A stretch of DNA of 37,150 nt. Source: an uncultured Candidatus Saccharibacteria bacterium. GTDB lineage: Bacteria > Patescibacteriota > Minisyncoccia > Phycocordibacterales > UBA2100. The notes under the pieces are model-generated. The model was not told the origin of the DNA. It saw nothing but the letters and a program-made list of their open reading frames with translations, and did no database searches. The position numbers and the translations under genes are program-made. Below, one piece after another: positions 12,197 through 37,138 of this stretch; positions within the stretch are counted from its first letter, which is position 1, and every line of letters starts with the position of its first letter. The DNA lies in the NCBI GenBank assembly GCA_964604085.1, contig CAZRXN010000002.1, positions 5,508 through 42,657 on the forward strand. The letters are read 5' to 3'.

Positions 12197-12841
12197 ATGA
12201 AAATGCAGTTCCAGAGGAGCGGAGGCGTCGCTTCGCGGCGTTTTGTGCGCGGCCCTTTCGGCACCATCGATATAGGGACCCTTCCGGGTTCCCCGGCGGG
12301 ACGCTGGGGCATCCGAAGGAAGGCAGAGCTGCATGCGGCGATCGTGAGCCGCATACTCTCTTTCGACGAAGCGTCGCTTCGCTACGCCTTGTCTCGTACG
12401 GAATTGGGTGCCTGGCACACGCTGATCAAATCAGGAGGGTTTCCGGCGCTCGGAAGTTCTAAAACGCAAATCGAAAGTGTAGGCGCCGGATCCGCAGCGC
12501 GCATGATTGAAGAAGCGTGGCCAAGTGATTCAGTGGAGTCGTTCGGAAACCTAACGCTCGACTACACGCACCAAAAAGCGCTCGCGCACGGTGTGCAGCT
12601 CGCGCTCACGAACCTCCAATACTCGATTCTTGAGCTTCTCGCGCTTTGCGCCGGATACGTGGTAACGAGAGCGATGCTACTCGATTACCTCTACGGGACG
12701 GTCGGCAATGGGGAGCCCGAAATGAAAATAATCGACGTCGAGGTTTGCCGCATGCGCGCACAGATCGCGAAAAAAACAGGTGCGGCGTACATACGCACCG
12801 TTTGGGGACGAGGGTATCTATTCATGACCCCCTCTGCCTGA
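12197..12841 (+). CDS. Receiver-less OmpR/PhoB-type winged-helix DNA-binding protein with an N-terminal DUF1153-like HTH region
   Basis: 214 aa. C-terminus LTNLQYSILELL ... VVTRAMLLDYLYG ... KIIDVEVCRMRAQI ... IRTVWGRGYLF matches the Trans_reg_C pattern. N-terminus LPGSPAGRWGIRRKAELHAAIVSRILSFDEASLRYALSRTELGAWHTLI resembles DUF1153. No D-D-K receiver motifs. Confidence 0.75.
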   Translation: MKMQFQRSGGVASRRFVRGPFGTIDIGTLPGSPAGRWGIRRKAELHAAIVSRILSFDEASLRYALSRTELGAWHTLIKSGGFPALGSSKTQIESVGAGSAARMIEEAWPSDSVESFGNLTLDYTHQKALAHGVQLALTNLQYSILELLALCAGYVVTRAMLLDYLYGTVGNGEPEMKIIDVEVCRMRAQIAKKTGAAYIRTVWGRGYLFMTPSA

Positions 12842-24988: not shown

Positions 24989-25894
24989 TTATGCGCGGCT
25001 CTTTTGCGCGAGGATGTTGATCGCGCGCGTAATCACCGGAAGGATGTCATCGTAAAAATTGAGGTCGCCGACACGTGCGAGCGGAAACCACTGCGCGTCG
25101 TCCAGACCGCCCTCTTTCTTGAGCCGCAGTTCCGAAAAGGGCGCGCGCGCGAGGAAGTAGGTCGCATGCCGTTTCTTTTTGCCGTGAGCGCCATTTGATG
25201 AATCGTTGGCGATGTACTCGTTCTCGCCGAGCTTCTCCTCTACTTCGACATCAAGACCGATTTCCTCTTTCACTTTTCGCAGAACGCCCTCCTCGTGACC
25301 CTCGTTCTGCTTGAGTTTCCCCTTTGAGAGCGTCCAGTGTCCAAAAATGTCGTGCACGAGGGCAAGGTATACGCCGTCAGGATCCCGCGCGTACACCACT
25401 GCCCCGACGAGCTCTTCGATCGGCATGGGGCCGCCCTTCTCTTTCCGCTTCGACCCCTCTGCTTTTCCCGGCTCGCCGAGCTCGATATATACAGCGCCCA
25501 AAACGCCGTTGACGAAGCGACTTGAGGCGCTGGAGCCAAACGTCTTCGCGAGCTCGATTGCTTCGTTGATGGCCACCTTTGCGGGAACCTGGGAACGGTC
25601 TGCATACAGCAGCTCCGCAAAGCCGATCCGCAGCACGTTTCGATCGATTGCCGCGATCTTTTCCAAAGGCCACTCGGGTGCCGCACGCGCGATCACCGCG
25701 TCTATTTCGCTCTGCTTGGCGATGACCGTCTTGAGGAGCGACTGCATGAATGGCATGTCCTGCGGGCGTGCGCCGAATTCGGAGGCATATGAGGAGAGAT
25801 GCTCCAGGGACTGCTCGAGCGACGTGTCGCCCGACTGATCCCTCTCGAAGAGGACCTGAAGGACGACGGATCGCGCAAGATGCCTATTTGCCAT
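24989..25894 (-). CDS. nusB: NusB antitermination factor fused to a C-terminal Nudix hydrolase domain
   Basis: ORF 24989..25939, start ATG 25894 (MANRHLARSVVLQVLFERD). NusB core: AIDRNVLRIGFAELLY ... VAINEAIELAKTFGSSASSRFVNGVLGAV. After a Lys/Glu/Gly linker comes the Nudix box GKLKQNEGHEEGVLRKVKEEIGL (G-x5-E-x7-R-x-U-x-E-E-x-G-U). Confidence 0.85.
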   Translation of the reverse strand: MANRHLARSVVLQVLFERDQSGDTSLEQSLEHLSSYASEFGARPQDMPFMQSLLKTVIAKQSEIDAVIARAAPEWPLEKIAAIDRNVLRIGFAELLYADRSQVPAKVAINEAIELAKTFGSSASSRFVNGVLGAVYIELGEPGKAEGSKRKEKGGPMPIEELVGAVVYARDPDGVYLALVHDIFGHWTLSKGKLKQNEGHEEGVLRKVKEEIGLDVEVEEKLGENEYIANDSSNGAHGKKKRHATYFLARAPFSELRLKKEGGLDDAQWFPLARVGDLNFYDDILPVITRAINILAQKSRA

Positions 25895-25970
25895 AGAGAA
25901 CAATTTCCTTAGTGTACAAAATTTCCCCCCGAGCAACACCGCGGGATCGGGAAAAGTCGGGACAAGGCGC

Positions 25971-26262: not shown

Positions 26263-26886
26263 TTATACGGATATTTCGGCGTTTTGCAAAATATCCGAAG
26301 GTGCGAGGAGGCGGGTGCAGAATGTCGTTCGATGGAGCGGGCAAAAGCCGAAGCGGGCGATGCGCGCACGGTGCGACGGCGTTCCGTACCCCTTGTGCAC
26401 CTCAAAGCCGTAGACGGGGTACGAGCGCGCGAGCCGACGCATGTACCTGTCTCGCAGCACCTTCGCGACGATGCTCGCAAGCGAAATGACGGGTTCCTGC
26501 TCGTCCCCGCGGATGATCGTCCGCTGCGCGCCATAGGCGGCGGGCGCGCGCAGTCCTCCGTCGAGACGCACCTCGCACGTCGCAGGGTCCGCCGACACGC
26601 GCTTCAATACCCGCGAAAGGCTCGACCGAATAGCCGGGACGATGCCCTGCTCATCGATCACCACAGCCGAGGAGAACGATACTCCGAAGGAGAGGAGTCC
26701 GGATTGGTTCAGTTCGCGAATGCGACGGTACCACGTTTCGCGCGCCTCCGGGGAGAGCTGTTTGGAGTCGCGCACGCCGCGAACCAGCTCAAAATCGAAC
26801 GAGGCGGGGATGAGCACCGCACCAACGGCTACCGGCCCCGCGAGCGGCCCTCTGCCCGCTTCATCCACACCCACGAGGTACTGCAC
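26263..26886 (-). CDS. rnhB: Ribonuclease HII
   Basis: ORF 26263..27198. VGVDEAGRGPLAGPVAVGAV, DSKQLS, SIVAKVLRD and GYGT motifs. Start placed at GTG 26886 because TGGTATGAT lies 6 nt upstream and because ATG 26964 would overlap the divergent dnaE start. The start is uncertain. Confidence 0.8.
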   Translation of the reverse strand: MQYLVGVDEAGRGPLAGPVAVGAVLIPASFDFELVRGVRDSKQLSPEARETWYRRIRELNQSGLLSFGVSFSSAVVIDEQGIVPAIRSSLSRVLKRVSADPATCEVRLDGGLRAPAAYGAQRTIIRGDEQEPVISLASIVAKVLRDRYMRRLARSYPVYGFEVHKGYGTPSHRARIARFGFCPLHRTTFCTRLLAPSDILQNAEISV

Positions 26887-26892
26887 CCGCTC

Positions 26893-26928
26893 ATCATACC
26901 AGAGCGAGTCCCGACCCCTTGGTATACT
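26893..26928. promoter_or_regulatory. Back-to-back divergent extended -10 elements (rnhB and dnaE)
   Basis: Minus strand: TGGTATGAT (26893..26901), 6 nt before GTG 26886. Plus strand: TGGTATACT (26920..26928), 6 nt before dnaE ATG 26935. No SD on either side. Confidence 0.5.
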
Positions 26929-26934
26929 TGCAGC

Positions 26935-29900
26935 ATGTCGCGCGCGCGTTTCGTACACCTCCATACCCACTCTCACTACTCCCTTCTCGAAGCGCTCCCG
27001 AAGATCCCCGAGCTCGTTTCCGCTGCAAAAGAGGACGGCCAGAGTGCGCTCGCGCTCACGGATAACGGCAATCTCTACGGCGCGATTGAATTCTATAAGG
27101 AGTGCCTCAAGCAGGAGATGAAGCCCATCATTGGCGTCGATTTTTACGTCGCACCCCGCACCCGATTGGATAAAGAGCATCGGGTCGACGAGCACCACTC
27201 ACGTCTGGTCCTACTCGCAAAAAGCGCGGAGGGGTATGCGAATCTCATCCAGCTAGTCTCCGCCTCCTACCTTGAAGGATTCTTTCACCGGCCGCGGATA
27301 GACCGCGAGCTTATCGAACGGCATCGGGAGGGGCTGATCGCGATCCTCCCGGCATTCGCGGGCGAGCACGCGCGTGCCGTGCGCGACGGCCAAGCACGGA
27401 AGGCACAAGAATCGCTCGCATGGTACGCACAAATCTTTCCCGACGAGTGCTTTGCGGAAGTAACGCGGCACCCGGAGATAGAAGGCAGCGAAAAGGATAT
27501 GCGCGCGATCGTCGCGGCGGCGCAGAAAGCGGGAGTACCGCTCGTCGCCTCACACGAATGCTATTACCTGAAGCAAGACGAAGCACTCGCGCGGGAGCTC
27601 GTCGTCCGCATCAGGGAGGGCGGCGTGCTGAATCGAGAGTGGGGCGATGCAGTCCACGACTTTTCATTCAAAGGAAGCGCCGCAATGGAAGCGGCATTCG
27701 TGGACCTTCCGGAAGCGATCGAGAACACGGCGAAAATCGCGGACGCCTGCGCGCTGGAGCTCACGCTTGGAAAGGCGATTTTTCCCGACTTCCCTATCCC
27801 GAAGGGCTCGAGCGCCGACGCCGAGCTGCGCGCAAGGGCGGAGCGCGGTATCGCGGAGCGCGGCATGGAGAACACGCCAGAGGTACGAGCTCGCATCGAT
27901 CATGAGCTCACGATCATAGAAAAGAAACAGTACGCATCGTACTTCCTGATCGTGGCCGATCTTCTCGCGTGGGCTCGCGGCGCGGGAATCTATACAAACA
28001 CGCGCGGTTCGGCTGCCGGGTCGCTCGTTTCCTATCTGTGCGGCATCACCACCGTGGATCCGCTCGCCTTCCGCATGCCGTTCGAGCGGTTTCTCAATCC
28101 CGAGCGCCCTTCGGCACCCGATATCGACATGGATATCGCCGATAACCGCCGAGACGAGCTTATAGATTACGCGCGCGCGAAGTACGGCGAAGATCGCGTC
28201 GTGCAGATCGGCACGTTCGGCACAATGCTGGCACGAGCAGCCGTGCGAGACGTCGCGCGCGCACTCGGACACTCATACGGAACGGGCGACCGGATCGCCA
28301 AGCTCATCCCCTTCGGCAAGCAAGGGTTCCCCGTAACGATCGCCGGTTCGCTCGAATCGGTCCCCGAACTGAAAGAGGCGTACGACATGGATGCGGATGC
28401 GCGCGAGATCCTCGATCTCGCGCGCAAGATCGAAGGCAACGCCCGGCACGTCGGCGTCCACGCCGCGGGCGTCGTGATCGCGCCGGAAGCTGCGACACGC
28501 TACGTCCCCATCCAGCTCGACCCGAAGGGCGGCAAGACGATTACGCAGTACGATATGTACTCCATCGCCGACGAGTACGGCGGAGTCGGGCTCCTTAAGT
28601 TCGACTTCCTCGGTCTTAAGAACCTCTCCGTGCTCGCGGACTCCGTCGCGCGCGTCGAAGCGCGGCTCGGCGAGCGAGTCGATCTCGATCGCATCCCGCT
28701 CGATGCGCCCGCCGTGTATGAGATGCTCTCGCGCGGCGAAACGCTCGGCGTATTTCAAATGGCGGGCAGCGGCATGACGAGCTACCTCAAGGATCTGAAG
28801 CCCACCGTCATACACGACCTGAACGCGATGGTCGCACTCTACCGCCCCGGTCCGATGGCCTTCATCCCCGAGTACATCGAGCGCAAGCGAAATCCCGCGC
28901 GCGTGCGCTACCTTGACCCGCGCCTCGAGAGCATACTGAAGCCGACCTACGGCGTGCTCATTTATCAAGATGACGTCATGACGATCGCGGTAGAGCTCGC
29001 CGGCTACTCCTGGGGTGAGGCGGACAAGCTCCGCAAAGCGATGGGTAAAAAAATACCTGAAGAGATGCGCGCGCAGAAGGACCGCTTTCTCAAGGGGTGC
29101 GTCGAGCGCGGCATGACGGAGAGCGTCGCAAAGCAGCTCTGGGAGCAGATCGAGACATTCGCCGCGTACGGTTTCAACAAGGCGCATGCGGCGAGCTACG
29201 GAAACCTCGCTTACAAGACCGCGTACATGAAGGCGCTCTATCCGGTCGACTACATGGCGAGCGTCCTCTCGGCAGATGCGGGCGACGTGGAGAAGATCGC
29301 CGAGATCGTGTCGGAGTGCGTCCGCATGGGCATCACCATCCTGCCGCCGTCCGTCGAAGAGAGCCGGGGTACATTCACGGTCACGGACGATCGGACGATT
29401 CGATTCGGCCTGTATTCGATAAAAAATTTCGGCACCGGCGTCGCCGATTCGATCATCGCAGAGCGCGAAGCAAACGGACCGTTTGCCGACCTCGCGGACT
29501 TCCTCTCACGAATAAGCGACAAGAATCTGAATAAGAAAGCACTGGAATCGCTCATCAAGTGCGGCGCGCTCGACCACTTCGGCGAGCGGAACCTGCTCCT
29601 CGCCAATATCGAGGCGCTCCGCGCATTCCATAAGGAGCACACGCAAGCGCCAAGCGATCAGGTATCGCTTTTCTCCGGCGCGCTTCCACGCGATATGAAG
29701 CTGACACTCCCCGAGCGTGCGACGCCCGCCTCACTTGAGGAGCGGCTCACCTGGGAGAAGGAGCTGCTCGGCTTCTACATCTCCGGTCACCCGCTCGATC
29801 GGCACCGGGAGAAGCTCGGGCGCGCCAAAGACATCAAGCACACGAAGGAGCACCTCCGCGGCGCAGAGACCGTGATCGCCGGATACATCGAAAGCGTGCA

Positions 29901-30105
29901 AACGATCCTCACGAAGCACGGTGATCGAATGGGATTTCTCAAAGTGTCTGACTATTCCGATGGGATAGAAGTCGTCGCTTTTCCGCGCCTTTTGAAGGAG
30001 CACGGCGAGCTACTCGTGTCTGGCGCCTGCATTATGCTAAAAGGAAAGATCTCCGAACGGAACGGCGAGCCAAGCTTTGTTGCGGATAAAGTGAAGGCGC
30101 TATAG
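26935..30105 (+). CDS. dnaE: DNA polymerase III alpha subunit
   Basis: ORF 26284..30105, start ATG 26935 (MSRARFVHLHTHSHYSLLEA, PHP domain). Polymerase core with FDFLGLKNL, YRPGPM and GFNKAHAASY. Clamp-binding-like QVSLF. Ends right after the OB fold, so there is no long C-terminal tau-binding region. Confidence 0.95.
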   Translation: MSRARFVHLHTHSHYSLLEALPKIPELVSAAKEDGQSALALTDNGNLYGAIEFYKECLKQEMKPIIGVDFYVAPRTRLDKEHRVDEHHSRLVLLAKSAEGYANLIQLVSASYLEGFFHRPRIDRELIERHREGLIAILPAFAGEHARAVRDGQARKAQESLAWYAQIFPDECFAEVTRHPEIEGSEKDMRAIVAAAQKAGVPLVASHECYYLKQDEALARELVVRIREGGVLNREWGDAVHDFSFKGSAAMEAAFVDLPEAIENTAKIADACALELTLGKAIFPDFPIPKGSSADAELRARAERGIAERGMENTPEVRARIDHELTIIEKKQYASYFLIVADLLAWARGAGIYTNTRGSAAGSLVSYLCGITTVDPLAFRMPFERFLNPERPSAPDIDMDIADNRRDELIDYARAKYGEDRVVQIGTFGTMLARAAVRDVARALGHSYGTGDRIAKLIPFGKQGFPVTIAGSLESVPELKEAYDMDADAREILDLARKIEGNARHVGVHAAGVVIAPEAATRYVPIQLDPKGGKTITQYDMYSIADEYGGVGLLKFDFLGLKNLSVLADSVARVEARLGERVDLDRIPLDAPAVYEMLSRGETLGVFQMAGSGMTSYLKDLKPTVIHDLNAMVALYRPGPMAFIPEYIERKRNPARVRYLDPRLESILKPTYGVLIYQDDVMTIAVELAGYSWGEADKLRKAMGKKIPEEMRAQKDRFLKGCVERGMTESVAKQLWEQIETFAAYGFNKAHAASYGNLAYKTAYMKALYPVDYMASVLSADAGDVEKIAEIVSECVRMGITILPPSVEESRGTFTVTDDRTIRFGLYSIKNFGTGVADSIIAEREANGPFADLADFLSRISDKNLNKKALESLIKCGALDHFGERNLLLANIEALRAFHKEHTQAPSDQVSLFSGALPRDMKLTLPERATPASLEERLTWEKELLGFYISGHPLDRHREKLGRAKDIKHTKEHLRGAETVIAGYIESVQTILTKHGDRMGFLKVSDYSDGIEVVAFPRLLKEHGELLVSGACIMLKGKISERNGEPSFVADKVKAL

Positions 30106-30117
30106 AGTAGATGAACT

Positions 30118-31869
30118 ATGGCGGACGGCGACGCACTTGCGCATACGCGACACACACTTGCTCATCTCCTCGCCGCCTCCGTTCGCGAACACTATCCGGA
30201 CGCGAAGTTGACCCTAGGACCCGCGATCGACACGGGATTTTATTACGACATAGATTTCGGCAGCGAAAAGATCTCCGATGAAGATCTCTCGAAACTCGAG
30301 GAGACCATGCGCGCGCTCCTTCCCACGTGGGACGATTTTACCCACCGAGAAGTATCGAAAGAGGAAGCGCTCGCACTCTTTGCCGGGAATCCCTATAAGG
30401 AGGAGCTCATTCGGGAAATAGCGGATCGCGGGGAGTCCATCACGCTCTATACGTGCGGCAATTTTACCGACCTGTGCCGCGGCGGCCACACGGAGCACCC
30501 CTCGAAAGAGATCAAGCCGGATTCTTTCAAGCTCGACCGCATTGCGGGCGCATACTGGCGCGGCGACGAAAAAAATCCCATGCTCACCCGCATCTACGGC
30601 CTCGCATTCAAGACGAAAGCTGCGCTCGACGAGTACCTCGCGATGCGCGAAGAGGCCTTACGCCGAGACCACCGGAAAATCGCTAAAGAGCAAGACCTCC
30701 TGATTTTTTCGGACCTGGTCGGAAGCGGCATGCCGCTCTATACGCCGCGCGGCAATCTCGTACGTGGCGCGATCGTTGCCTACTCGCGCGAGCTCAACGA
30801 GCGCCTCGGCTTCGGAGAGGTGCATACGCCAAACATCAACAAAGCGGAGCTTTTCAAGATTTCCGGCCACTACGATCAGTACAAGGACGACATGCTCTCG
30901 GTGAGCTCCCAGTACGTAGCCGATGAAATGTTTCTCAAGCCCATGAACTGCCCGCAGCACACGCAAATTTACGCCTCGCGGCCCCGTAGTTATCGCGACC
31001 TCCCGCTCCGATACGCTGACTTCGCGAACCTCTATCGCGACGAGCGCCCCGGAGAATTATCGGGACTGACGCGTCTGCGCGCGTTCGCGCAGGACGACGG
31101 CCACATCTTCTGCCGAGTTGATCAGATCGAGGAAGAAGTCTCGGAGGTGCTCGGAGCGATTCAAGACGCGCTCGCTACATATAAGATCGACTATTGGATG
31201 CGGCTCTCGCTGCGCGATGAAAATAATACGGCGAAGTACCTCGGAGACGATGCGATCTGGCAGTCCTCACAGACGATCTTGCGCGACCTTTTGCAAAAAA
31301 AGAAAATCGAGTTCAAGGAGGCGGAGGGTGAAGCGGCTTTTTATGGCCCAAAGATAGACATCATGGCGGTGGATGCCCTCGGAAGAGAGTGGCAAATTTC
31401 GACGGTGCAACTCGATTTCAATCAGCCGGCCCGCTTCGGACTCACCTACGCGGATTCCGACGGCTCGGAAAAAATTCCGGTCATGATCCATCGTGCGCTT
31501 ATTGGCTCGCCCGATCGCTTCCTCGGCATTCTTCTCGAGCACTATGCGGGAGCACTCCCCACGTGGCTTGCGCCCTATCCAGTGCGCATCCTCCCCGTAT
31601 CTGATAAGCATGCTTCATACGCGGGAGAGGTCCGCGCATTTCTAGGTGAGCGCGGTATTCGGGCTGAGCTCGACGATTCGAACGAGACACTCGGCAAGCG
31701 GATCCGCGAGGCAAAGCTCGCGAAAATTCCCTACGTGCTCGTCGTCGGTGACACCGAAGTTGCGGCCGGATCCGTCACCGTGGAGAGCCGAGACAAGGGA
31801 AAGATCGGCGCACGCTCGAAAGAGGAGTTCGCGGACGATCTCATTGAGGAGATTCGCACGCGCGCCTAG
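30118..31869 (+). CDS. thrS: Threonyl-tRNA synthetase lacking the N-terminal TGS domain
   Basis: 583 aa. Begins in the editing/SAD region (HTRHTLAHLLA, H-x3-H). Class II core with FLKPMNCPQH, RYADFANLYRDERPGELSGLTRLRAFAQDDGHIF and FYGPKID, followed by an anticodon-binding domain. Confidence 0.93.
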   Translation: MADGDALAHTRHTLAHLLAASVREHYPDAKLTLGPAIDTGFYYDIDFGSEKISDEDLSKLEETMRALLPTWDDFTHREVSKEEALALFAGNPYKEELIREIADRGESITLYTCGNFTDLCRGGHTEHPSKEIKPDSFKLDRIAGAYWRGDEKNPMLTRIYGLAFKTKAALDEYLAMREEALRRDHRKIAKEQDLLIFSDLVGSGMPLYTPRGNLVRGAIVAYSRELNERLGFGEVHTPNINKAELFKISGHYDQYKDDMLSVSSQYVADEMFLKPMNCPQHTQIYASRPRSYRDLPLRYADFANLYRDERPGELSGLTRLRAFAQDDGHIFCRVDQIEEEVSEVLGAIQDALATYKIDYWMRLSLRDENNTAKYLGDDAIWQSSQTILRDLLQKKKIEFKEAEGEAAFYGPKIDIMAVDALGREWQISTVQLDFNQPARFGLTYADSDGSEKIPVMIHRALIGSPDRFLGILLEHYAGALPTWLAPYPVRILPVSDKHASYAGEVRAFLGERGIRAELDDSNETLGKRIREAKLAKIPYVLVVGDTEVAAGSVTVESRDKGKIGARSKEEFADDLIEEIRTRA

Positions 31870-32429
31870 CGGCGCAAGCCGAATCGCCGCAGAGCGCGCA
31901 GCATCTGTGCGTACAGTCCGCCGCGCCAAAATACAATCAGGTAGGCCCCTGCGATAGAAATGGCGATAAGACCTGCCCAGTACAATGCGTTGCCTATCGG
32001 CCCGAAGTCGAAACCCGTATAGGGCAAACTGGAGACCGAAATTGTCGTACTCGAAGCGGTGCTCCTGCACACGGTCTCACCGGCCTGCCCTACCGCCGTG
32101 AGCGTATATACCTCAGTGGGGCTTGCGACCGCTCTCGTGCCGGAAAGCGGTACGGGGCCTATACCGTGATCGATCGAGGCCGATGACGCGTTTGCCACCG
32201 ACCAGCCGAGCACCCCCGACGCGCCCATGTCCCGCATTTCGATATAGCACGCAGGTACCGACGTACTCGTAGAACTGGCGGTCGTGCTAGCGGAGTCTGC
32301 ATGTACGACTGCTCCCGAACCGACCAGCGCGAATGGAACAGCCTCGAAGAAAATGACTGATCCGGCGACGATCGCGATAATGAATCCTATCTGCCAAAAC
32401 CTCGCAAAAAATTTTTGTATGCTTTGCAT
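31866..32429 (-). CDS. Surface/membrane protein, short paralogue (one Cys-bracketed repeat + PYTG C-terminal module)
   Basis: 187 aa. N-terminal hydrophobic anchor, one repeat unit (C61 ... C121) and the C-terminus SLPYTGFDFGPIGNALYW + TM + RRFGLRR. Its stop overlaps the thrS stop on CTAG (31866..31869). Confidence 0.65.
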   Translation of the reverse strand: MQSIQKFFARFWQIGFIIAIVAGSVIFFEAVPFALVGSGAVVHADSASTTASSTSTSVPACYIEMRDMGASGVLGWSVANASSASIDHGIGPVPLSGTRAVASPTEVYTLTAVGQAGETVCRSTASSTTISVSSLPYTGFDFGPIGNALYWAGLIAISIAGAYLIVFWRGGLYAQMLRALRRFGLRR

Positions 32430-32543: not shown

Positions 32544-34547
32544 TTAACTTCTATGAATCACGATGCGCGGCGCTTCGCCTCCCTTAGAAGGAATCATGCG
32601 CATGACATCGGCGAACTGCGCGCCATAGGTTCGGCTCCCGGCCGTGCGAAGGGCCTGCGGAATCCGGAATTCAGTCGCACTCTTCGCGTACGCGCGCGCC
32701 GTGCTTGCGATGGTGGCGCGGTAGTAGACTCCAAGGTAGAGGCACGCTACCGCGAGAGAGAGAATCGAGAGCCAGTAGGCTGCCGAGCCGATCGGTCCGA
32801 GGTCGAGCCCCGTATAGGGAACCTGCGTCAGGGAGATATACGGCGGTACCACCGGCGGAATGTACTGCTCCGTGCGGCAGGTTACGCTCTGCCCATTTGT
32901 GCCGTACGCGGTCATCGTGTACTGGGTGTAGCCACTAAGCTGCACGCTTCGCGATCCCGAGACGGCTACCGAGCCGATGTTGGAGATATACGCGGAGGTC
33001 GCGTTTGTCGAACCCCACGAGAGCGTCGCCTGATTGCCGTACCCATACTGATTGTAGTTCGATAGCGTGATCCAGCAGCTCGGGCCGGGCGTGTACGTGT
33101 TCACGTAGATCGTCGTGTGGCACTGCGCGCTCTGCCCGTTGTACCCGTACACCGTGAGCGTGTAGGTGGTCGTCGTGTTCGGGTAGACACTCTGGCTGCC
33201 GTTTACGCCGACGGACCCTATGTTGGTGAGGTAGGCGGACGTGGCGTTCGAGGACGACCAAGAAAGGTACGAGCTGCCGCCCTGTGAAATCGAAGTCGGG
33301 TTCGCGTAAATGCTGCACGAAGGCGTCTCGACCTGATTTACGTAGATGCTGGTCTGGCACTGCACGCTCTGTCCGTTCGTGCCATACACCGTGAGCGTGT
33401 ACGTTTTCGTGTGGTAGATGTCGTTCACCGTGCGCGATCCCGAAAGACCCACGGATCCGACACCGCCATCGATGAATGCAGAGCTGCCGTTCGTGGACGT
33501 CCACGAGAGCGTCGAGGAGCCGCCGTACTGCACGGAGCTCGGGTTGGCATAGATCGAACAGGTCGGCATTTGCTGCACCTCCACAACGATCGTGGTCGAG
33601 CACTGCGCCGTACCTCCCGGTCCGGAAATCGTCAACGTGTAGGTGCGCGTCGAAGTGAGGTTGTCCACGGTGCGGGAGCCGTTCAGCGAGACGGAACCGA
33701 TGCCGTGATTAAGGGATGCCGAAGTCGCGTTCGTAGACGTCCAAACGAGCGTGGACGCGCCGCCGTACTGCACCTGCGTAGGATTCGCGTAAATGGTGCA
33801 CGAGGGCGTCTGCTGTATTTTCACGATGATCGTGGTCTGGCACTTCGCGACGCCGCCCTGGCTGGTGACGGTGAGCGTATAGGTAACATCGCCAGTCAGA
33901 TTCGAAACCGTGTGCGAGCCGTTCTTAGAGACAGAGCCAATGCCGTGATCCAGCGATACCGAGGTGCCGTTGGTGGAGGTCCACGTAAGCGTAGACGAGC
34001 CGCCGTACTCGACGACACCAGGATTCGCCGAGAGCGTACAGCTCGGCTTTTGCGGCGGCGGGATTACGGTCACTTTGACGCTGCAGTCCTCGTCCCCGTC
34101 ATCGTTTGAGACGGTAAGGGTGTAGGTCGTAGTCGTATCCGGGGAAACGACACGGGATCCATCGTCCGGCACGTTCCCTATCCCATGATTGATGAATGCA
34201 TCGTCCGCGTTGGTAGATTCCCAGATCAGCGTCGTAGTCTCGCCCTTCACGATCGTCTTGATCGAGACGTCTATGTCGCAGGAGGGCGGCTGCTTCTTGT
34301 GGAAATTCCAGCCACCAGGGTTGAAATCGCCGCTGGAAGAGCCGTCGCCGCCAGAGCCGCAGCAGTCGCCGCCGCCGCCGCCATCACCACCGTCGGCGTG
34401 CGAGAGCAGTACGCCAATCGAAAGCGATCCGTCCTTCCCATGTTCAATGGAAAACGGCATCGCCATCGCAACAGAAATCGCGAGTGCGGCAGAGCCGATA
34501 ACGAAACCGATAACCCAGTAACGATTGAAAACGCGGCTGATAGACAT
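32544..34547 (-). CDS. Large surface protein: N-terminal anchor, Gly/Asp-rich DCC segment, six Cys-bracketed ~80-aa repeats, PYTG C-terminal module
   Basis: 667 aa. See the repeat feature. C-terminus LTQVPYTGLDLGPIGSAAYW + TM + about 58-aa tail ending GGEAPRIVIHRS. Confidence 0.8.
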   Translation of the reverse strand: MSISRVFNRYWVIGFVIGSAALAISVAMAMPFSIEHGKDGSLSIGVLLSHADGGDGGGGGDCCGSGGDGSSSGDFNPGGWNFHKKQPPSCDIDVSIKTIVKGETTTLIWESTNADDAFINHGIGNVPDDGSRVVSPDTTTTYTLTVSNDDGDEDCSVKVTVIPPPQKPSCTLSANPGVVEYGGSSTLTWTSTNGTSVSLDHGIGSVSKNGSHTVSNLTGDVTYTLTVTSQGGVAKCQTTIIVKIQQTPSCTIYANPTQVQYGGASTLVWTSTNATSASLNHGIGSVSLNGSRTVDNLTSTRTYTLTISGPGGTAQCSTTIVVEVQQMPTCSIYANPSSVQYGGSSTLSWTSTNGSSAFIDGGVGSVGLSGSRTVNDIYHTKTYTLTVYGTNGQSVQCQTSIYVNQVETPSCSIYANPTSISQGGSSYLSWSSSNATSAYLTNIGSVGVNGSQSVYPNTTTTYTLTVYGYNGQSAQCHTTIYVNTYTPGPSCWITLSNYNQYGYGNQATLSWGSTNATSAYISNIGSVAVSGSRSVQLSGYTQYTMTAYGTNGQSVTCRTEQYIPPVVPPYISLTQVPYTGLDLGPIGSAAYWLSILSLAVACLYLGVYYRATIASTARAYAKSATEFRIPQALRTAGSRTYGAQFADVMRMIPSKGGEAPRIVIHRS
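32841..34286 (-). repeat. Six tandem coding repeats (~80 aa each, beta-sandwich/Ig-like by pattern)
   Basis: Units start at PSCDIDV, PSCTLSA, PSCTIYA, PTCSIYA, PSCSIYA and PSCWITL. Each carries ...STL-x-W-x-STNA-x-SA...IGSV...GS-x-x-V...TYTLTV...C. Confidence 0.85.
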
Positions 34548-34625: not shown

Positions 34626-34940
34626 CTAACGGTCGAGATAGACGGTCGAGCCAATAATTCGACTCACGGTGTAGCGCACACCTTTAATGATCGTGCACCA
34701 CTCCCAGCTGGGGCGGATGTCCGCCATTCCGCAGCGGTACCCTCCTTGATTGGAAGTGAGGGTAATCTTTCCGGTCTGCCAACACCGGTGGCCTGGACAT
34801 TGAGAAGCTTTTCCCAATGTAATCCAGGCTCCCGGGTAGACGAACCCAGTCCCGCGTATGCAGTACGTGCCCGCAAACGCCTGAGAGGAAGCTGCAAAGA
34901 CCATCGCAGCAACCAGAACCCCCAGAGAAAACTTTTTCAT
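34626..34940 (-). CDS. Small secreted Cys-rich protein (signal peptide, 5 Cys in the mature part)
   Basis: 104 aa. MKKFSLGVLVAAMVFAASSQAFA/GTYC. Strong SD GGAGGAGGAG directly upstream. No family recognised. Confidence 0.65.
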   Translation of the reverse strand: MKKFSLGVLVAAMVFAASSQAFAGTYCIRGTGFVYPGAWITLGKASQCPGHRCWQTGKITLTSNQGGYRCGMADIRPSWEWCTIIKGVRYTVSRIIGSTVYLDR

Positions 34941-35113: not shown

Positions 35114-37078
35114 TTAATTTCGCTTAATGACAATGCGCGGCATTCCCCCGTCTTCCGGTTGTATGAATGACATACGATCGGAAGAGCTTTCGCTCGCGAC
35201 TGGCTGCACAGGCAGCACGGCAGGGCGCACTTCCCTTTCCATCTGCTCGCTCGCGCTCGGCTGCGTTCCGCCCGTGCGGCGCACGCTTGACGCGAGTCCC
35301 GTGGCAAAGGCGACCATGCCTCCCTTCCAGTAGATGAGAAGGTACGCGGCTGCCGCCGAGATCGAAAGGAGCGAGAGCCAGTACAGAGCGTTTCCAATCG
35401 GCCCGAAGTCGAATCCCGTGTACGGAATCTGCGTGAGCGAGATGCTTCCCGAGACGGTTACGTAGGTCTGGCAGGTGGACGTGTGGCCCTGGTAGTCCTG
35501 CACGGTCAGCGTATAGGTGCGGGACGTATTAGGGCGGACGCCGAGCGAGCCGTTCGCGGAAACGGAGCCGAGCCCGTCAGAGAGGTACGCAGAGTTTGCA
35601 CCTACGGAGGTCCAAGAGAGGTACGACGTCTCGCCATCGCGGATCGACGCGGGACTTGCGGAGATCGTGCAGGAAACCGGCTGCTGATTAACTACCGTCT
35701 GGCAGTTCGCGCTCTGTCCGTTGTACCCGTACACAGTCATCGAGTAGACGGTGCCGCTCGACGGGTATACGGTGCGCGACCCACTCGTGGAGACCGAGCC
35801 GATATTCGGCGAGATCGTAGCGGAGGTCGCATTGGTCGAGCCCCAGGAGAGCGTGGACTGATTGTTGTACGAAGAGTAAGGCGAGAGCGTGATCCAGCAG
35901 CTCGGCGCGCCCTGATTACTGGTGTAGACGGTGGCCTGGCAGTTCGCACTCTGGCCATTGTATCCGTACACGGTAAGCGTGTAGGTCATGGTGCCGTTCG
36001 GATACACCGTCCGGGAGCCATTGGTAGAGACGGAGCCGATATTGGAGAGCGAAGCGGAAGACGCATTGGAGCTATTCCACGTGAGCGTTACTGGAGAGCC
36101 CGAGTTCAGATTCGTCGTAGACGCGTAGATGGTGCACGAAGGCGCCTGCTGGCTCACATAGACGGTCGTCTGGCAGTTCGAGGTGCCGCCCTGGCCGTAG
36201 ACGGTGAGGACGTAGGTCGTCGTCTGGCTCGGGTATACCGACTGGGAACCGTTCGTAGAAACGGAGCCGACATTGGAGAGCGACGCCGAGGTGGCGTAGT
36301 TCGAGTGCCACACCAGCGAGACCGACTGTGCGGAGGTGATGCTGCCCGGGGTGGCGGTGATGCTGCAGCTCGGCTGATTGAACGTGTACTGGACCGGATG
36401 ATAATTCGAGGTCGTGATCGGCGTTACGTTCGCCACGGTGATCGGCTGCGCGATTGAAATCGGAGCCGAAATCGCTATCGGCGTCGAGTAGCTCGTGTAG
36501 GAGTACGTCGGCACGTACGCGTCGTAGACGTCATATACATCGTAGGCGCTGCCATAGACATCATACACGTCGTATACATCGTACGGGTCTACGGCATTAT
36601 TATATCCGTAATCATACAGTGGATCGTTGTAGTCGAAATTGTACGCTGGATCGTTGTAGTCGAATGGGAATGTGGCGTCGTTGTAGTCGAAGTCAAACGT
36701 GGAATCGTTATAGGCGACGTCGAACGCAGAGTCGTTGTACTCGTAATATGAGGAGTAATCGTTAAAGGTTGGATCGTAGGAGAAATCGTTATAGTCGTAC
36801 CACAAGGAGGAATCATTGTAGTCAAAACTATATAGAGTATCGTTGTAACCCCAATCGTACTCCGGCTCGTTATAGGAGTACGAGAAGTCGAAGTCATTGA
36901 ATCCGGGATCATAGGAGAAATCGTTATAGCCCAGATCGAAAGCAGCGTCGTTGTAACCAAAATCGTATTCGCAGCAATCGAACTGCGCGAACGTCTGTTG
37001 CGGGATGGAAGTTACTCCGACGAATACTGCACAAATCAGTATCCCGGAGAGGAGAAAACGCTGGATGGCTGAACTCAT
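35114..37078 (-). CDS. Large surface protein: signal peptide, YND nonapeptide-repeat region, DVY repeats, four Cys-bracketed repeats, PYTG C-terminal module
   Basis: 654 aa. Signal MSSAIQRFLLSGILICAVFVGVTSIPQQTFA/QFDCC. C-terminus LTQIPYTGFDFGPIGNALYW + TM + about 70-aa tail ending DGGMPRIVIKRN. Confidence 0.8.
   Translation of the reverse strand: MSSAIQRFLLSGILICAVFVGVTSIPQQTFAQFDCCEYDFGYNDAAFDLGYNDFSYDPGFNDFDFSYSYNEPEYDWGYNDTLYSFDYNDSSLWYDYNDFSYDPTFNDYSSYYEYNDSAFDVAYNDSTFDFDYNDATFPFDYNDPAYNFDYNDPLYDYGYNNAVDPYDVYDVYDVYGSAYDVYDVYDAYVPTYSYTSYSTPIAISAPISIAQPITVANVTPITTSNYHPVQYTFNQPSCSITATPGSITSAQSVSLVWHSNYATSASLSNVGSVSTNGSQSVYPSQTTTYVLTVYGQGGTSNCQTTVYVSQQAPSCTIYASTTNLNSGSPVTLTWNSSNASSASLSNIGSVSTNGSRTVYPNGTMTYTLTVYGYNGQSANCQATVYTSNQGAPSCWITLSPYSSYNNQSTLSWGSTNATSATISPNIGSVSTSGSRTVYPSSGTVYSMTVYGYNGQSANCQTVVNQQPVSCTISASPASIRDGETSYLSWTSVGANSAYLSDGLGSVSANGSLGVRPNTSRTYTLTVQDYQGHTSTCQTYVTVSGSISLTQIPYTGFDFGPIGNALYWLSLLSISAAAAYLLIYWKGGMVAFATGLASSVRRTGGTQPSASEQMEREVRPAVLPVQPVASESSSDRMSFIQPEDGGMPRIVIKRN
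35447..36373 (-). repeat. Four tandem coding repeats of the same ~80-aa Cys-bracketed unit
   Basis: Units start at PSCSITA, PSCTIYA, PSCWITL and VSCTISA. Same W-x-S-x-NA-x-SA / IGSV / TYTLTV / C pattern as in 32841..34286. Confidence 0.85.
36515..36982 (-). repeat. 14 x nonapeptide [YF]N[DE]-x-x-[FY]-x-x-x coding repeat (27-nt period), followed by (DVY)n
   Basis: aa 33-188: FDCCEYDFG YNDAAFDLG YNDFSYDPG FNDFDFSYS YNEPEYDWG YNDTLYSFD YNDSSLWYD YNDFSYDPT FNDYSSYYE YNDSAFDVA YNDSTFDFD YNDATFPFD YNDPAYNFD YNDPLYDYG YNN, then DPYDVYDVYDVYGSAYDVYDVYDAY. On the plus strand this shows as RTCRTTRTA recurring every 27 nt. Confidence 0.9.
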
Positions 37079-37109: not shown

Positions 37110-37138
37110 ATTATATCTTCAAACCAAATAGATGTCAA
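37110..37138 (-). promoter_or_regulatory. Perfect consensus sigma-70 promoter TTGACA-17 nt-TATAAT
   Basis: Minus strand: TTGACA (37133..37138), 17-nt spacer, TATAAT (37110..37115), 31 nt upstream of ATG 37078. No obvious SD in the leader. Confidence 0.6.

Follow-up and report, generated by a model that had tools for sequence, protein, structure and literature searches.

The stretch of DNA analysed here (37,150 nucleotides of contig CAZRXN010000002.1, hereafter the window) carries in its last 5.3 kb three open reading frames (ORFs) on the minus strand, p187, p667, and p654 (187, 667, and 654 amino acids (aa), respectively), which are convergent with thrS and dnaE. All three were shown to end in a common C-terminal module centred on the tetrapeptide PYTG, and the nature of this module, its recurrence in related genomes, and its probable relation to a sortase encoded there are described below. 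The features of the three genes, including those predicted with AlphaFold2 (AF2) and scored by the predicted local distance difference test (pLDDT), are as follows.

31866..32429, minus strand: p187, short paralogue with a signal/anchor, one immunoglobulin-like (Ig-like) repeat, the module (C-terminal module sequence SSLPYTGFDFGPIGNALYWAGLIAISIAGAYLIVFWRGGLYAQMLRALRRFGLRR by ORF translation), and a short basic tail LYAQMLRALRRFGLRR
32013..32024, minus strand: PYTG codons of p187 (aa 136-139), by translation
32544..34547, minus strand: p667, paralogue with an N-terminal signal/anchor, a Gly/Asp-rich stretch, six Ig-like repeats each with a Cys pair, the module (LTQVPYTGLDLGPIGSAAYWLSILSLAVACLYLGVYYR by ORF translation), and a long tail of 57 aa ending in KGGEAPRIVIHRS
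32547..32615, minus strand: C-terminal 23 aa of p667 with the conserved tail motif FADVMRMIPSKGGEAPRIVIHRS, by translation and alignment
32721..32795, minus strand: predicted membrane helix of p667 (about aa 585-609), by homology to the AF2 model of p654
32808..32819, minus strand: PYTG codons of p667 (aa 577-580), by translation
35114..37078, minus strand: p654, with a signal peptide, an acidic/aromatic low-complexity region of the YND type, four Ig-like repeats, the module (LTQIPYTGFDFGPIGNALYWLSLLSISAAAAYLLIYWKGG by ORF translation), and a long tail of about 67-69 aa ending in EDGGMPRIVIKRN
35117..35185, minus strand: C-terminal 23 aa of p654 SSDRMSFIQPEDGGMPRIVIKRN, predicted conserved cytoplasmic beta-hairpin motif, by alignment, AF2, and positive-inside topology
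35327..35401, minus strand: predicted membrane helix of p654 (about aa 560-584) GPIGNALYWLSLLSISAAAAYLLIY, by conservation and an AF2 helix with pLDDT 85-97
35414..35425, minus strand: PYTG codons of p654 (aa 552-555), putative sortase cleavage motif within SLTQIPYTGFDFGP
37110..37138, minus strand: perfect sigma-70 consensus promoter (TTGACA-17-TATAAT) upstream of p654, its end 31 nt from the start codon

Translation of the three ORFs yielded exactly the sequences quoted in the initial annotation of this DNA, and its claim that the module is common to all three paralogues was borne out. In each, [LIV]PYTG[FL]D[FL]GPIG is followed by ~25 uncharged residues and these by basic ones, and the pentapeptides LPYTG, VPYTG, and IPYTG near the C-termini are of the xPxTG type; the sortase-signal layout (xPxTG, helix, basic residues) recognised at the outset was thus indeed seen, and SLSQIPYTGFDFGP represents the candidate sortase substrate peptide carrying the motif. 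The tail after the helix amounts to 19 basic-type aa in p187, the layout of which is the nearest to a canonical sortase signal among the three, to 57 aa in p667, whose final 98 codons occupy 32547..32840, and to ~67-69 aa in p654. Both long tails close with D-x-M-(~10 aa)-PRIVI[HK]R[SN]. At the other end of the proteins, an N-terminal hydrophobic segment was found in all three ORFs and in 86 of the 97 complete members of the wider family described below. The DNA of the three module copies is 56-64% identical, with matches at 15-21 of 42 third codon positions; since the third positions are largely randomised at this identity, the similarity is kept at the protein level by selection on the protein, and recent gene conversion between the copies was ruled out.

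To define its distribution, the last 113 aa of p654 were used as a query, and the metagenomic proteins matched by this search aligned over 96-100% of it. A profile built from 12 modules was then searched against 1.84 billion representative proteins, and matched 819 clusters (at 50% identity) at E ≤ 1e-3, 286 at E ≤ 1e-10, and 51 at E ≤ 1e-30. The module was C-terminal in all 150 of the 150 listed profile matches, and the matched proteins were almost all from Candidatus Kaiserbacteria/Paceibacterota. A scan with one genome per species returned 114 relatives, from which 77 loci were kept, labelled almost throughout as Kaiserbacteria, Paceibacterota, or Parcubacteria; together with the window, these 78 loci contained 105 module ORFs, chosen by the presence of PYTG. 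On account of this recurrence in 105 ORFs and 819 protein clusters, chance or private-paralogue similarity was ruled out, and the module can be regarded as a real C-terminal unit that extends beyond the three genes from which it was first proposed.

In the alignment of the 105 ORFs, with positions counted relative to the P of PYTG, strong conservation was observed at L-4 (98%), Q-2 (98%), I-1 (94%, otherwise V or M), F+4 (85%), D+5 (94%), G+7 (98%), G+10 (98%), N+11 (77%), Y+14 (94%), W+15 (87%), A+22 (91%), Y+27 (96%), L+28 (89%), and Y+31 (87%), and [KR]GG stands directly after the module helix. Within ORFs so selected, [LIVM]PYTG was the most invariant element; the FDFGP that follows it varies (e.g., LALGP, LADTA, ISSTA), and the G, N, YW, A, YL, and Y positions of the p654 helix are near-invariant across the family. 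Of the 105 ORFs, 79 close with a PRIVI-type motif, their tails spanning 90-154 aa when counted from the P of PYTG. In its fuller form, this conserved end is [ST]-x-D-x-M-(~10 aa)-P-R-I-V-I-x-R-x; an LP[VT] element often stands in front of it, and a beta-hairpin is predicted for it. The remaining 26 of 105, including p187, lack the long tail and have short or different tails, with PYTG and the helix kept.

Several of these short-tail members were found to have conserved amphipathic basic tails of their own, falling into at least two classes (e.g., SFAGEVKTAMRNQLRAIRSI and FA.D.VRKVA.KLD..RG); such paralogues occur in loci L014, L020, L021, L026, L027, L036, L056, and L077. Because these sequences are themselves conserved, the short cytoplasmic tails appear to be under selection as well.

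None of the three proteins matched a Pfam or NCBIfam sorting-signal model (LPXTG TIGR01167/PF00746, PEP-CTERM, and related models) at E ≤ 1, and the 12 isolated modules gave no Pfam or NCBIfam match even at E ≤ 10. A sequence search of PDB with the module gave no match, public names of the family members are limited to "hypothetical protein" or "Ig-like domain-containing protein", and the literature searched held no specific account of PYTG and sortase, of a Kaiserbacteria sortase, or of the module signal. The module is widespread, real, and unannotated, being described neither in the literature searched nor in the profile libraries.

The topology of the module was assessed by structure prediction and charge distribution. 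The uncharged stretch of ~25 residues begins 8 residues after the P of PYTG, and AF2 on the module alignment predicted a single long helix over residues 14-54 of the 109-aa query (pLDDT 85-97 within its membrane portion), then a low-confidence linker, and at the C-terminus a beta-hairpin with the strands DRMSFI and PRIVIK (pLDDT ~70). The 21 residues outside the helix contain on average 0.11 K+R vs 2.9 in the 21 residues after it, a distribution which fits the positive-inside rule and thus indicates that the tail is cytoplasmic. The linker is rich in Ala, Val, Ser, Pro, and Thr, with a median of 54 aa, and the tail end is conserved as strongly as PYTG, with invariant D, M, P, R, I, and R. The long tail is an optional element, and according to these models it is composed of a disordered linker and a conserved beta-hairpin (D-x-M…PRIVIxR), exposed to the cytoplasm. 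A regex scan of ~1.1 Mb of related loci found no PRIVI-type end on other protein types; a search with the 44-aa tail alignment gave 43 word candidates and 0 matches, an outcome that reflects the sensitivity limit of the search and is not evidence of absence. The G[FL]D[FL]GP.GN..YW extension and the long conserved tail are, as originally pointed out, atypical for sortase signals, and the combination of a conserved helix with a linker-hairpin tail is explained by no known sorting signal.

The gene order around the module genes was then compared among the related loci. A strongly conserved order was observed, running from GyrB through a CARDB-like membrane protein on the opposite strand, a protein of cluster c3, a secreted repeat protein, and 2-10 variable genes to one to four module genes, followed by ThrRS, DnaE, RNase HII, L32, NusB-NUDIX, RNase III, and SMC. 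Cluster c3 was identified as a sortase by its match to PF04203 (E 2e-19, 69.9 bits vs a cutoff of 26.6). It passes the general model TIGR01076 and fails those of classes C, D, E, F, and GN (20-37 bits vs cutoffs of 140-166), scoring about equally on classes C and E, and no class A or class B model was among its matches listed at E ≤ 0.1. Its alignment keeps the His (F.HSS), Cys (LTLVTCD; TLxTC), and Arg motifs after an N-terminal membrane anchor, and the closest solved structure was that of a Bacillus anthracis sortase (PDB 2kw8). This gene shares the strand of the module genes in every case and is located 0.6-8.6 kb upstream of them (median 3.3 kb). With two copies hidden by greedy ORF selection included, 46 loci contain it; among the 36 loci whose upstream flank reaches 8 kb or more, 34 do. 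In two loci (L006 and L029), an additional multi-Ig paralogue directly precedes it, at a distance of 16-21 bp. Across the ~1.1 Mb of loci, xPxTG with a C-terminal helix was found on no ORF outside the module family.

The initial annotation had noted that no sortase gene lies in the window. This is true in that no sortase was detected in any of the six frames, but it is misleading in that the window extends only 72 bp beyond the p654 start on its upstream side and stops at the very point at which the variable island would begin. Exact-protein look-ups (p654, p187, and P0023), a metagenome scan with the p654 N-terminus, and a search with the exact 46-mer of the window end retrieved no DNA beyond this point. 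Likewise, its suggestion that a new, non-sortase enzyme would be needed was not supported, since in the relatives a true sortase gene occupies the further-upstream position in 34 of 36 loci with sufficient flank. More than half of the genomes of the Candidate Phyla Radiation (CPR) encode a sortase (PMC6744442), and the literature also refers, in general terms, to "sortase motifs" on surface proteins of the CPR (PMC5220378).

The island around the sortase holds further envelope genes, among them those of the CARDB-like protein and of secreted repeat proteins, and its variable part often includes a YkuD L,D-transpeptidase. The CARDB-like membrane protein (cluster c6, ~334 aa; e.g., 2419..3423 in L066) is divergent just upstream of the sortase in 37 loci. 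Downstream of the sortase lies cluster c13, and a secreted protein of ~6-aa VGRP/IAHA-type repeats flanks the sortase. The CARDB-like protein, the repeat protein, and the YkuD L,D-transpeptidase together make up a cell-envelope island (L002-L078).

The ectodomains that carry the module were also characterised. A repeat of ~80 aa with two invariant Cys residues was delineated by repeat alignment, with invariant columns P, C, L, W, G, V, G, V, Y, T, G, and C, and was predicted to adopt an Ig-like beta-sandwich (pLDDT 95). Structural comparison matched it best to the N-domains of CEACAM proteins, the Ig domains of Dscam, and the Ig-like repeats of GhpA, a bacterial grappling-hook protein (query-normalised template modelling scores, TM-scores, of ~0.55-0.73). 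At least one such repeat was found in 199 of 232 family ectodomains, usually as a single copy adjoining the module, and the remaining ectodomains are low-complexity sequences rich in Tyr, Asn, Gln, Thr, and Pro. Since 199 of 232 carry the same repeat and the rest are of low complexity, the module is the property of a single, rapidly evolving family of surface proteins. Because it is nearly confined to this one family, a broadly portable class of sorting signals, as raised at the outset, was not supported. Lys is entirely absent from the ectodomains of p654 and p187.

The N-terminal third of p654 (36400..37000, minus strand) was observed to be a long acidic/aromatic low-complexity region built of [FY]-D-Y-N-D-x-x-[FY]-type units, and comparable regions rich in Tyr, Asn, Asp, and Gly make up most of the ectodomain in many family members.

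Besides the perfect promoter in front of p654, a 12/12 consensus promoter was found within 150 nt upstream of 33 of 70 long-tail genes vs 18 of 758 other ORFs (2.4%), the spacer in the long-tail genes being mostly 16 nt and many having a TG-extended -10 (L002-L078). Such consensus promoters would imply very high transcription, as for a major coat or S-layer-like protein; judged from its promoters, the module family probably ranks near the top in transcription among the genes of these genomes, which suggests that its members constitute a major surface coat protein. No RNA sequencing run holding the surface-protein gene was found.

The remainder of the window was shown to be housekeeping DNA of a small-genome bacterium, encoding HisRS, UppP/BacA, an AddA-like helicase, sigma-70, DnaG, RpoB/C, TrmD, SMC, RNase III, a NusB-NUDIX fusion, L32, DnaE, and ThrRS. 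Its DnaE and ThrRS are ~70-72% identical to homologues from metagenome-assembled genomes of Candidatus Kaiserbacteria, and near-identical DNA was found in soil metagenome runs, which indicates that the DNA comes from a soil metagenome. Between p667 and p654, a 104-aa ORF (34626..34940, minus strand) carries an evident signal peptide MKKFSLGVLVAAMVFAASSQAFA; it contains 6 Cys residues, has no Pfam match, and is possibly a small secreted protein encoded alongside the surface proteins. The fused NusB and NUDIX hydrolase domains form a 316-aa ORF (24989..25939, minus strand), a fusion kept in 43 related loci (cluster c4), and a 214-aa protein beside rpoC (12197..12841, plus strand) combines DUF1153 with an OmpR-type Trans_reg_C DNA-binding domain, without a receiver domain. 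The calls for DnaE (26284..30105, plus strand; 1273 aa vs ~1064 aa in homologues) and L32 (25971..26534, minus strand; 187 aa vs ~60-97 aa in homologues) overlap one another, and the N-terminal extension of each is probably untranslated.

Taken together, we consider it reasonably probable that the module is a lineage-specific variant of the sortase sorting signal, belonging to a dedicated sortase/target system of Candidatus Kaiserbacteria and close Paceibacterota and carried by a family of abundant coat proteins on the cell surface. Processing by a sortase is the most economical reading because several features converge on it: an invariant pentapeptide of the sortase type, as far from the membrane as is usual, a helix with basic residues after it, an export signal, near-canonical short-tail members, and a near-universal sortase neighbour. 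According to this reading, the protein would be exported via its N-terminal signal peptide, seen here as a hydrophobic N-terminus, and anchored in the membrane through its C-terminal helix, the tail lying in the cytoplasm, as the positive-inside charges suggest, so that the invariant Q-[IV]-P-Y-T-G would sit 4-10 residues outside the membrane. The neighbour-encoded, membrane-anchored sortase would then cut between T and G and move the Ig-like or low-complexity ectodomain onto peptidoglycan or another envelope acceptor, and the GFDFGP.GN..YW interface with one face of the helix may serve as the recognition determinants for this particular sortase. The tail may act as a handle by which the abundant membrane remnant left after cleavage is recognised or cleared, for instance by a membrane AAA+ protease, or else as a docking or positioning element before cleavage.

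Several observations, however, weigh against processing by a sortase. The curated LPXTG models fail on the proteins and on the isolated modules alike, and no Pro/Gly-rich wall-spanning segment was found before the motif. The window itself encodes no sortase, so that the source genome's own enzyme is not visible, and the sortase adjacency in the relatives is part of a block, GyrB…SMC, that shows synteny throughout; the linkage could thus be owed to preserved gene order instead of function and is by itself no proof. Furthermore, the helix is near-invariant (A+22 91%, Y+27 96%, L+28 89%, Y+31 87%) and the cytoplasmic end invariant, which is unexpected because a peptide merely cut off and discarded should not be so conserved. 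Strict membership of the LPXTG family fails on two points, namely that the curated models are unmatched and that most members extend well past the helix: a short positive tail that ends the protein soon after the helix does not occur in p667, p654, or 79 of the 105 members.

The conservation of helix and tail keeps alive a permanent anchor and also supports the idea that the remnant left by cleavage is specifically recognised. We tentatively entertain the possibility that the tail, as a linker with the D-x-M…PRIVIxR hairpin, is a functional intracellular module of a sortase-type substrate, acting either within an uncleaved transmembrane tether between the coat of an ultra-small cell and a cytoplasmic partner or as a remnant recognised for clearance, feedback, or positioning. 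To our knowledge, a sorting signal with information on both sides of the membrane has been described for no known sorting system.

As the foremost alternative, the module could be a permanent type I membrane anchor that is never cleaved, with QIPYTGFDFGP.GN..YW as a juxtamembrane structural or oligomerisation element and the cytoplasmic hairpin tying the coat to an intracellular partner or to neighbouring copies, thereby providing transmembrane coupling. It would account for a helix and a tail end conserved as strongly as PYTG, for a flexible linker with a predicted beta-hairpin, which is a typical docking geometry, and for the absence of both a wall-spanning linker and a match to the LPXTG models. 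On the other hand, 26 of 105 members have PYTG and the helix without the long tail, PYTG is an exact sortase-type pentapeptide at the usual membrane distance, and a sortase is the near-universal neighbour. Nor was a conserved candidate partner found nearby, the gene just upstream of the long-tail genes being conserved solely for the YkuD family in ~10 loci, and the PRIVI end is carried by no other protein type in the loci. We thus regard permanent anchoring as rather unlikely.

A new sorting class served by a non-sortase enzyme (an exosortase, archaeosortase, rhombosortase, or CPBP-type analogue), in which PYTG would mimic a sortase motif, was judged improbable. A signature reaching into the helix does resemble PEP-CTERM/PGF-CTERM-type signals more than LPXTG, and no existing model was matched; however, it is a sortase that is conserved in the neighbourhood, the annotated clusters of conserved neighbours include no gene of the exosortase, archaeosortase, rhomboid, or CPBP-like kind, and the module is not spread across unrelated protein families. 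Assembly of long-tail and short-tail paralogues as shaft and base of a sortase-polymerised pilus or fibre, in the manner of class C sortases, was rejected as highly improbable in spite of the Ig-like ectodomains, the tandem long-tail then short-tail genes recurring in many loci, and the near-equal class C and class E scores, because the repeats have no conserved Lys or pilin motif (p654 and p187 having no ectodomain Lys whatever), the class C score of the sortase, 36 bits, is far below the cutoff of 160, and most family members are largely of low complexity with a single Ig-like domain.

The envelopes of Patescibacteria (CPR) cells are essentially uncharacterised, and in this context the module marks the probable main surface coat protein of Kaiserbacteria, predicted to be very highly transcribed, and offers it a likely route of attachment, namely a sortase encoded nearby that falls into none of the defined classes. 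With a profile of the module, annotation pipelines could assign a name to hundreds of "hypothetical" proteins. The conserved helix and cytoplasmic hairpin exceed the known requirements of sortase signals; if functional, they would show that a signal for surface anchoring can have a function in the cytoplasm as well.

In comparison with known systems, the module shares with the LPXTG signal (TIGR01167/PF00746 Gram_pos_anchor) and its substrates the xPxTG motif, the helix, the basic residues on the cytoplasmic side, the N-terminal signal peptide, and, in the relatives, a sortase gene in the neighbourhood. It differs from that signal in its Q-[IV]-P-Y-T-G motif with a fixed Tyr, in the conserved GFDFGP.GN..YW followed by a helix with near-invariant positions, and in that most members add a tail of 50-120 aa ending in a beta-hairpin, whereas LPXTG substrates end with 3-8 basic residues. 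PEP-CTERM, PGF-CTERM, and GlyGly-CTERM signals are likewise tripartite with a family-specific signature near or in the helix, and the signals of exosortases, archaeosortases, and rhombosortases are, as here, found on abundant surface or S-layer proteins; these PEP-CTERM-type signals, however, end right after a short Arg cluster, whereas the module has a sortase-type pentapeptide and neither a model match nor such an enzyme nearby. The cluster c3 protein resembles class A-F sortases in having a sortase domain with the conserved His, the TLxTC Cys, and Arg as well as an N-terminal membrane anchor, but differs from them in passing the general TIGR01076 model only. Dedicated sortase/single-target pairs are known, such as the class GN ("marine") sortase TIGR03784 with its cognate target protein, and the present system resembles such a pair more than a housekeeping sortase, in that one sortase lies near one target family with its own motif variant. 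Its sortase nevertheless scores only 25.7 bits on TIGR03784 (cutoff 158), the architecture of the target differs, and we know of no long conserved cytoplasmic tail described for class GN targets, such as the one that most members of the present family carry.

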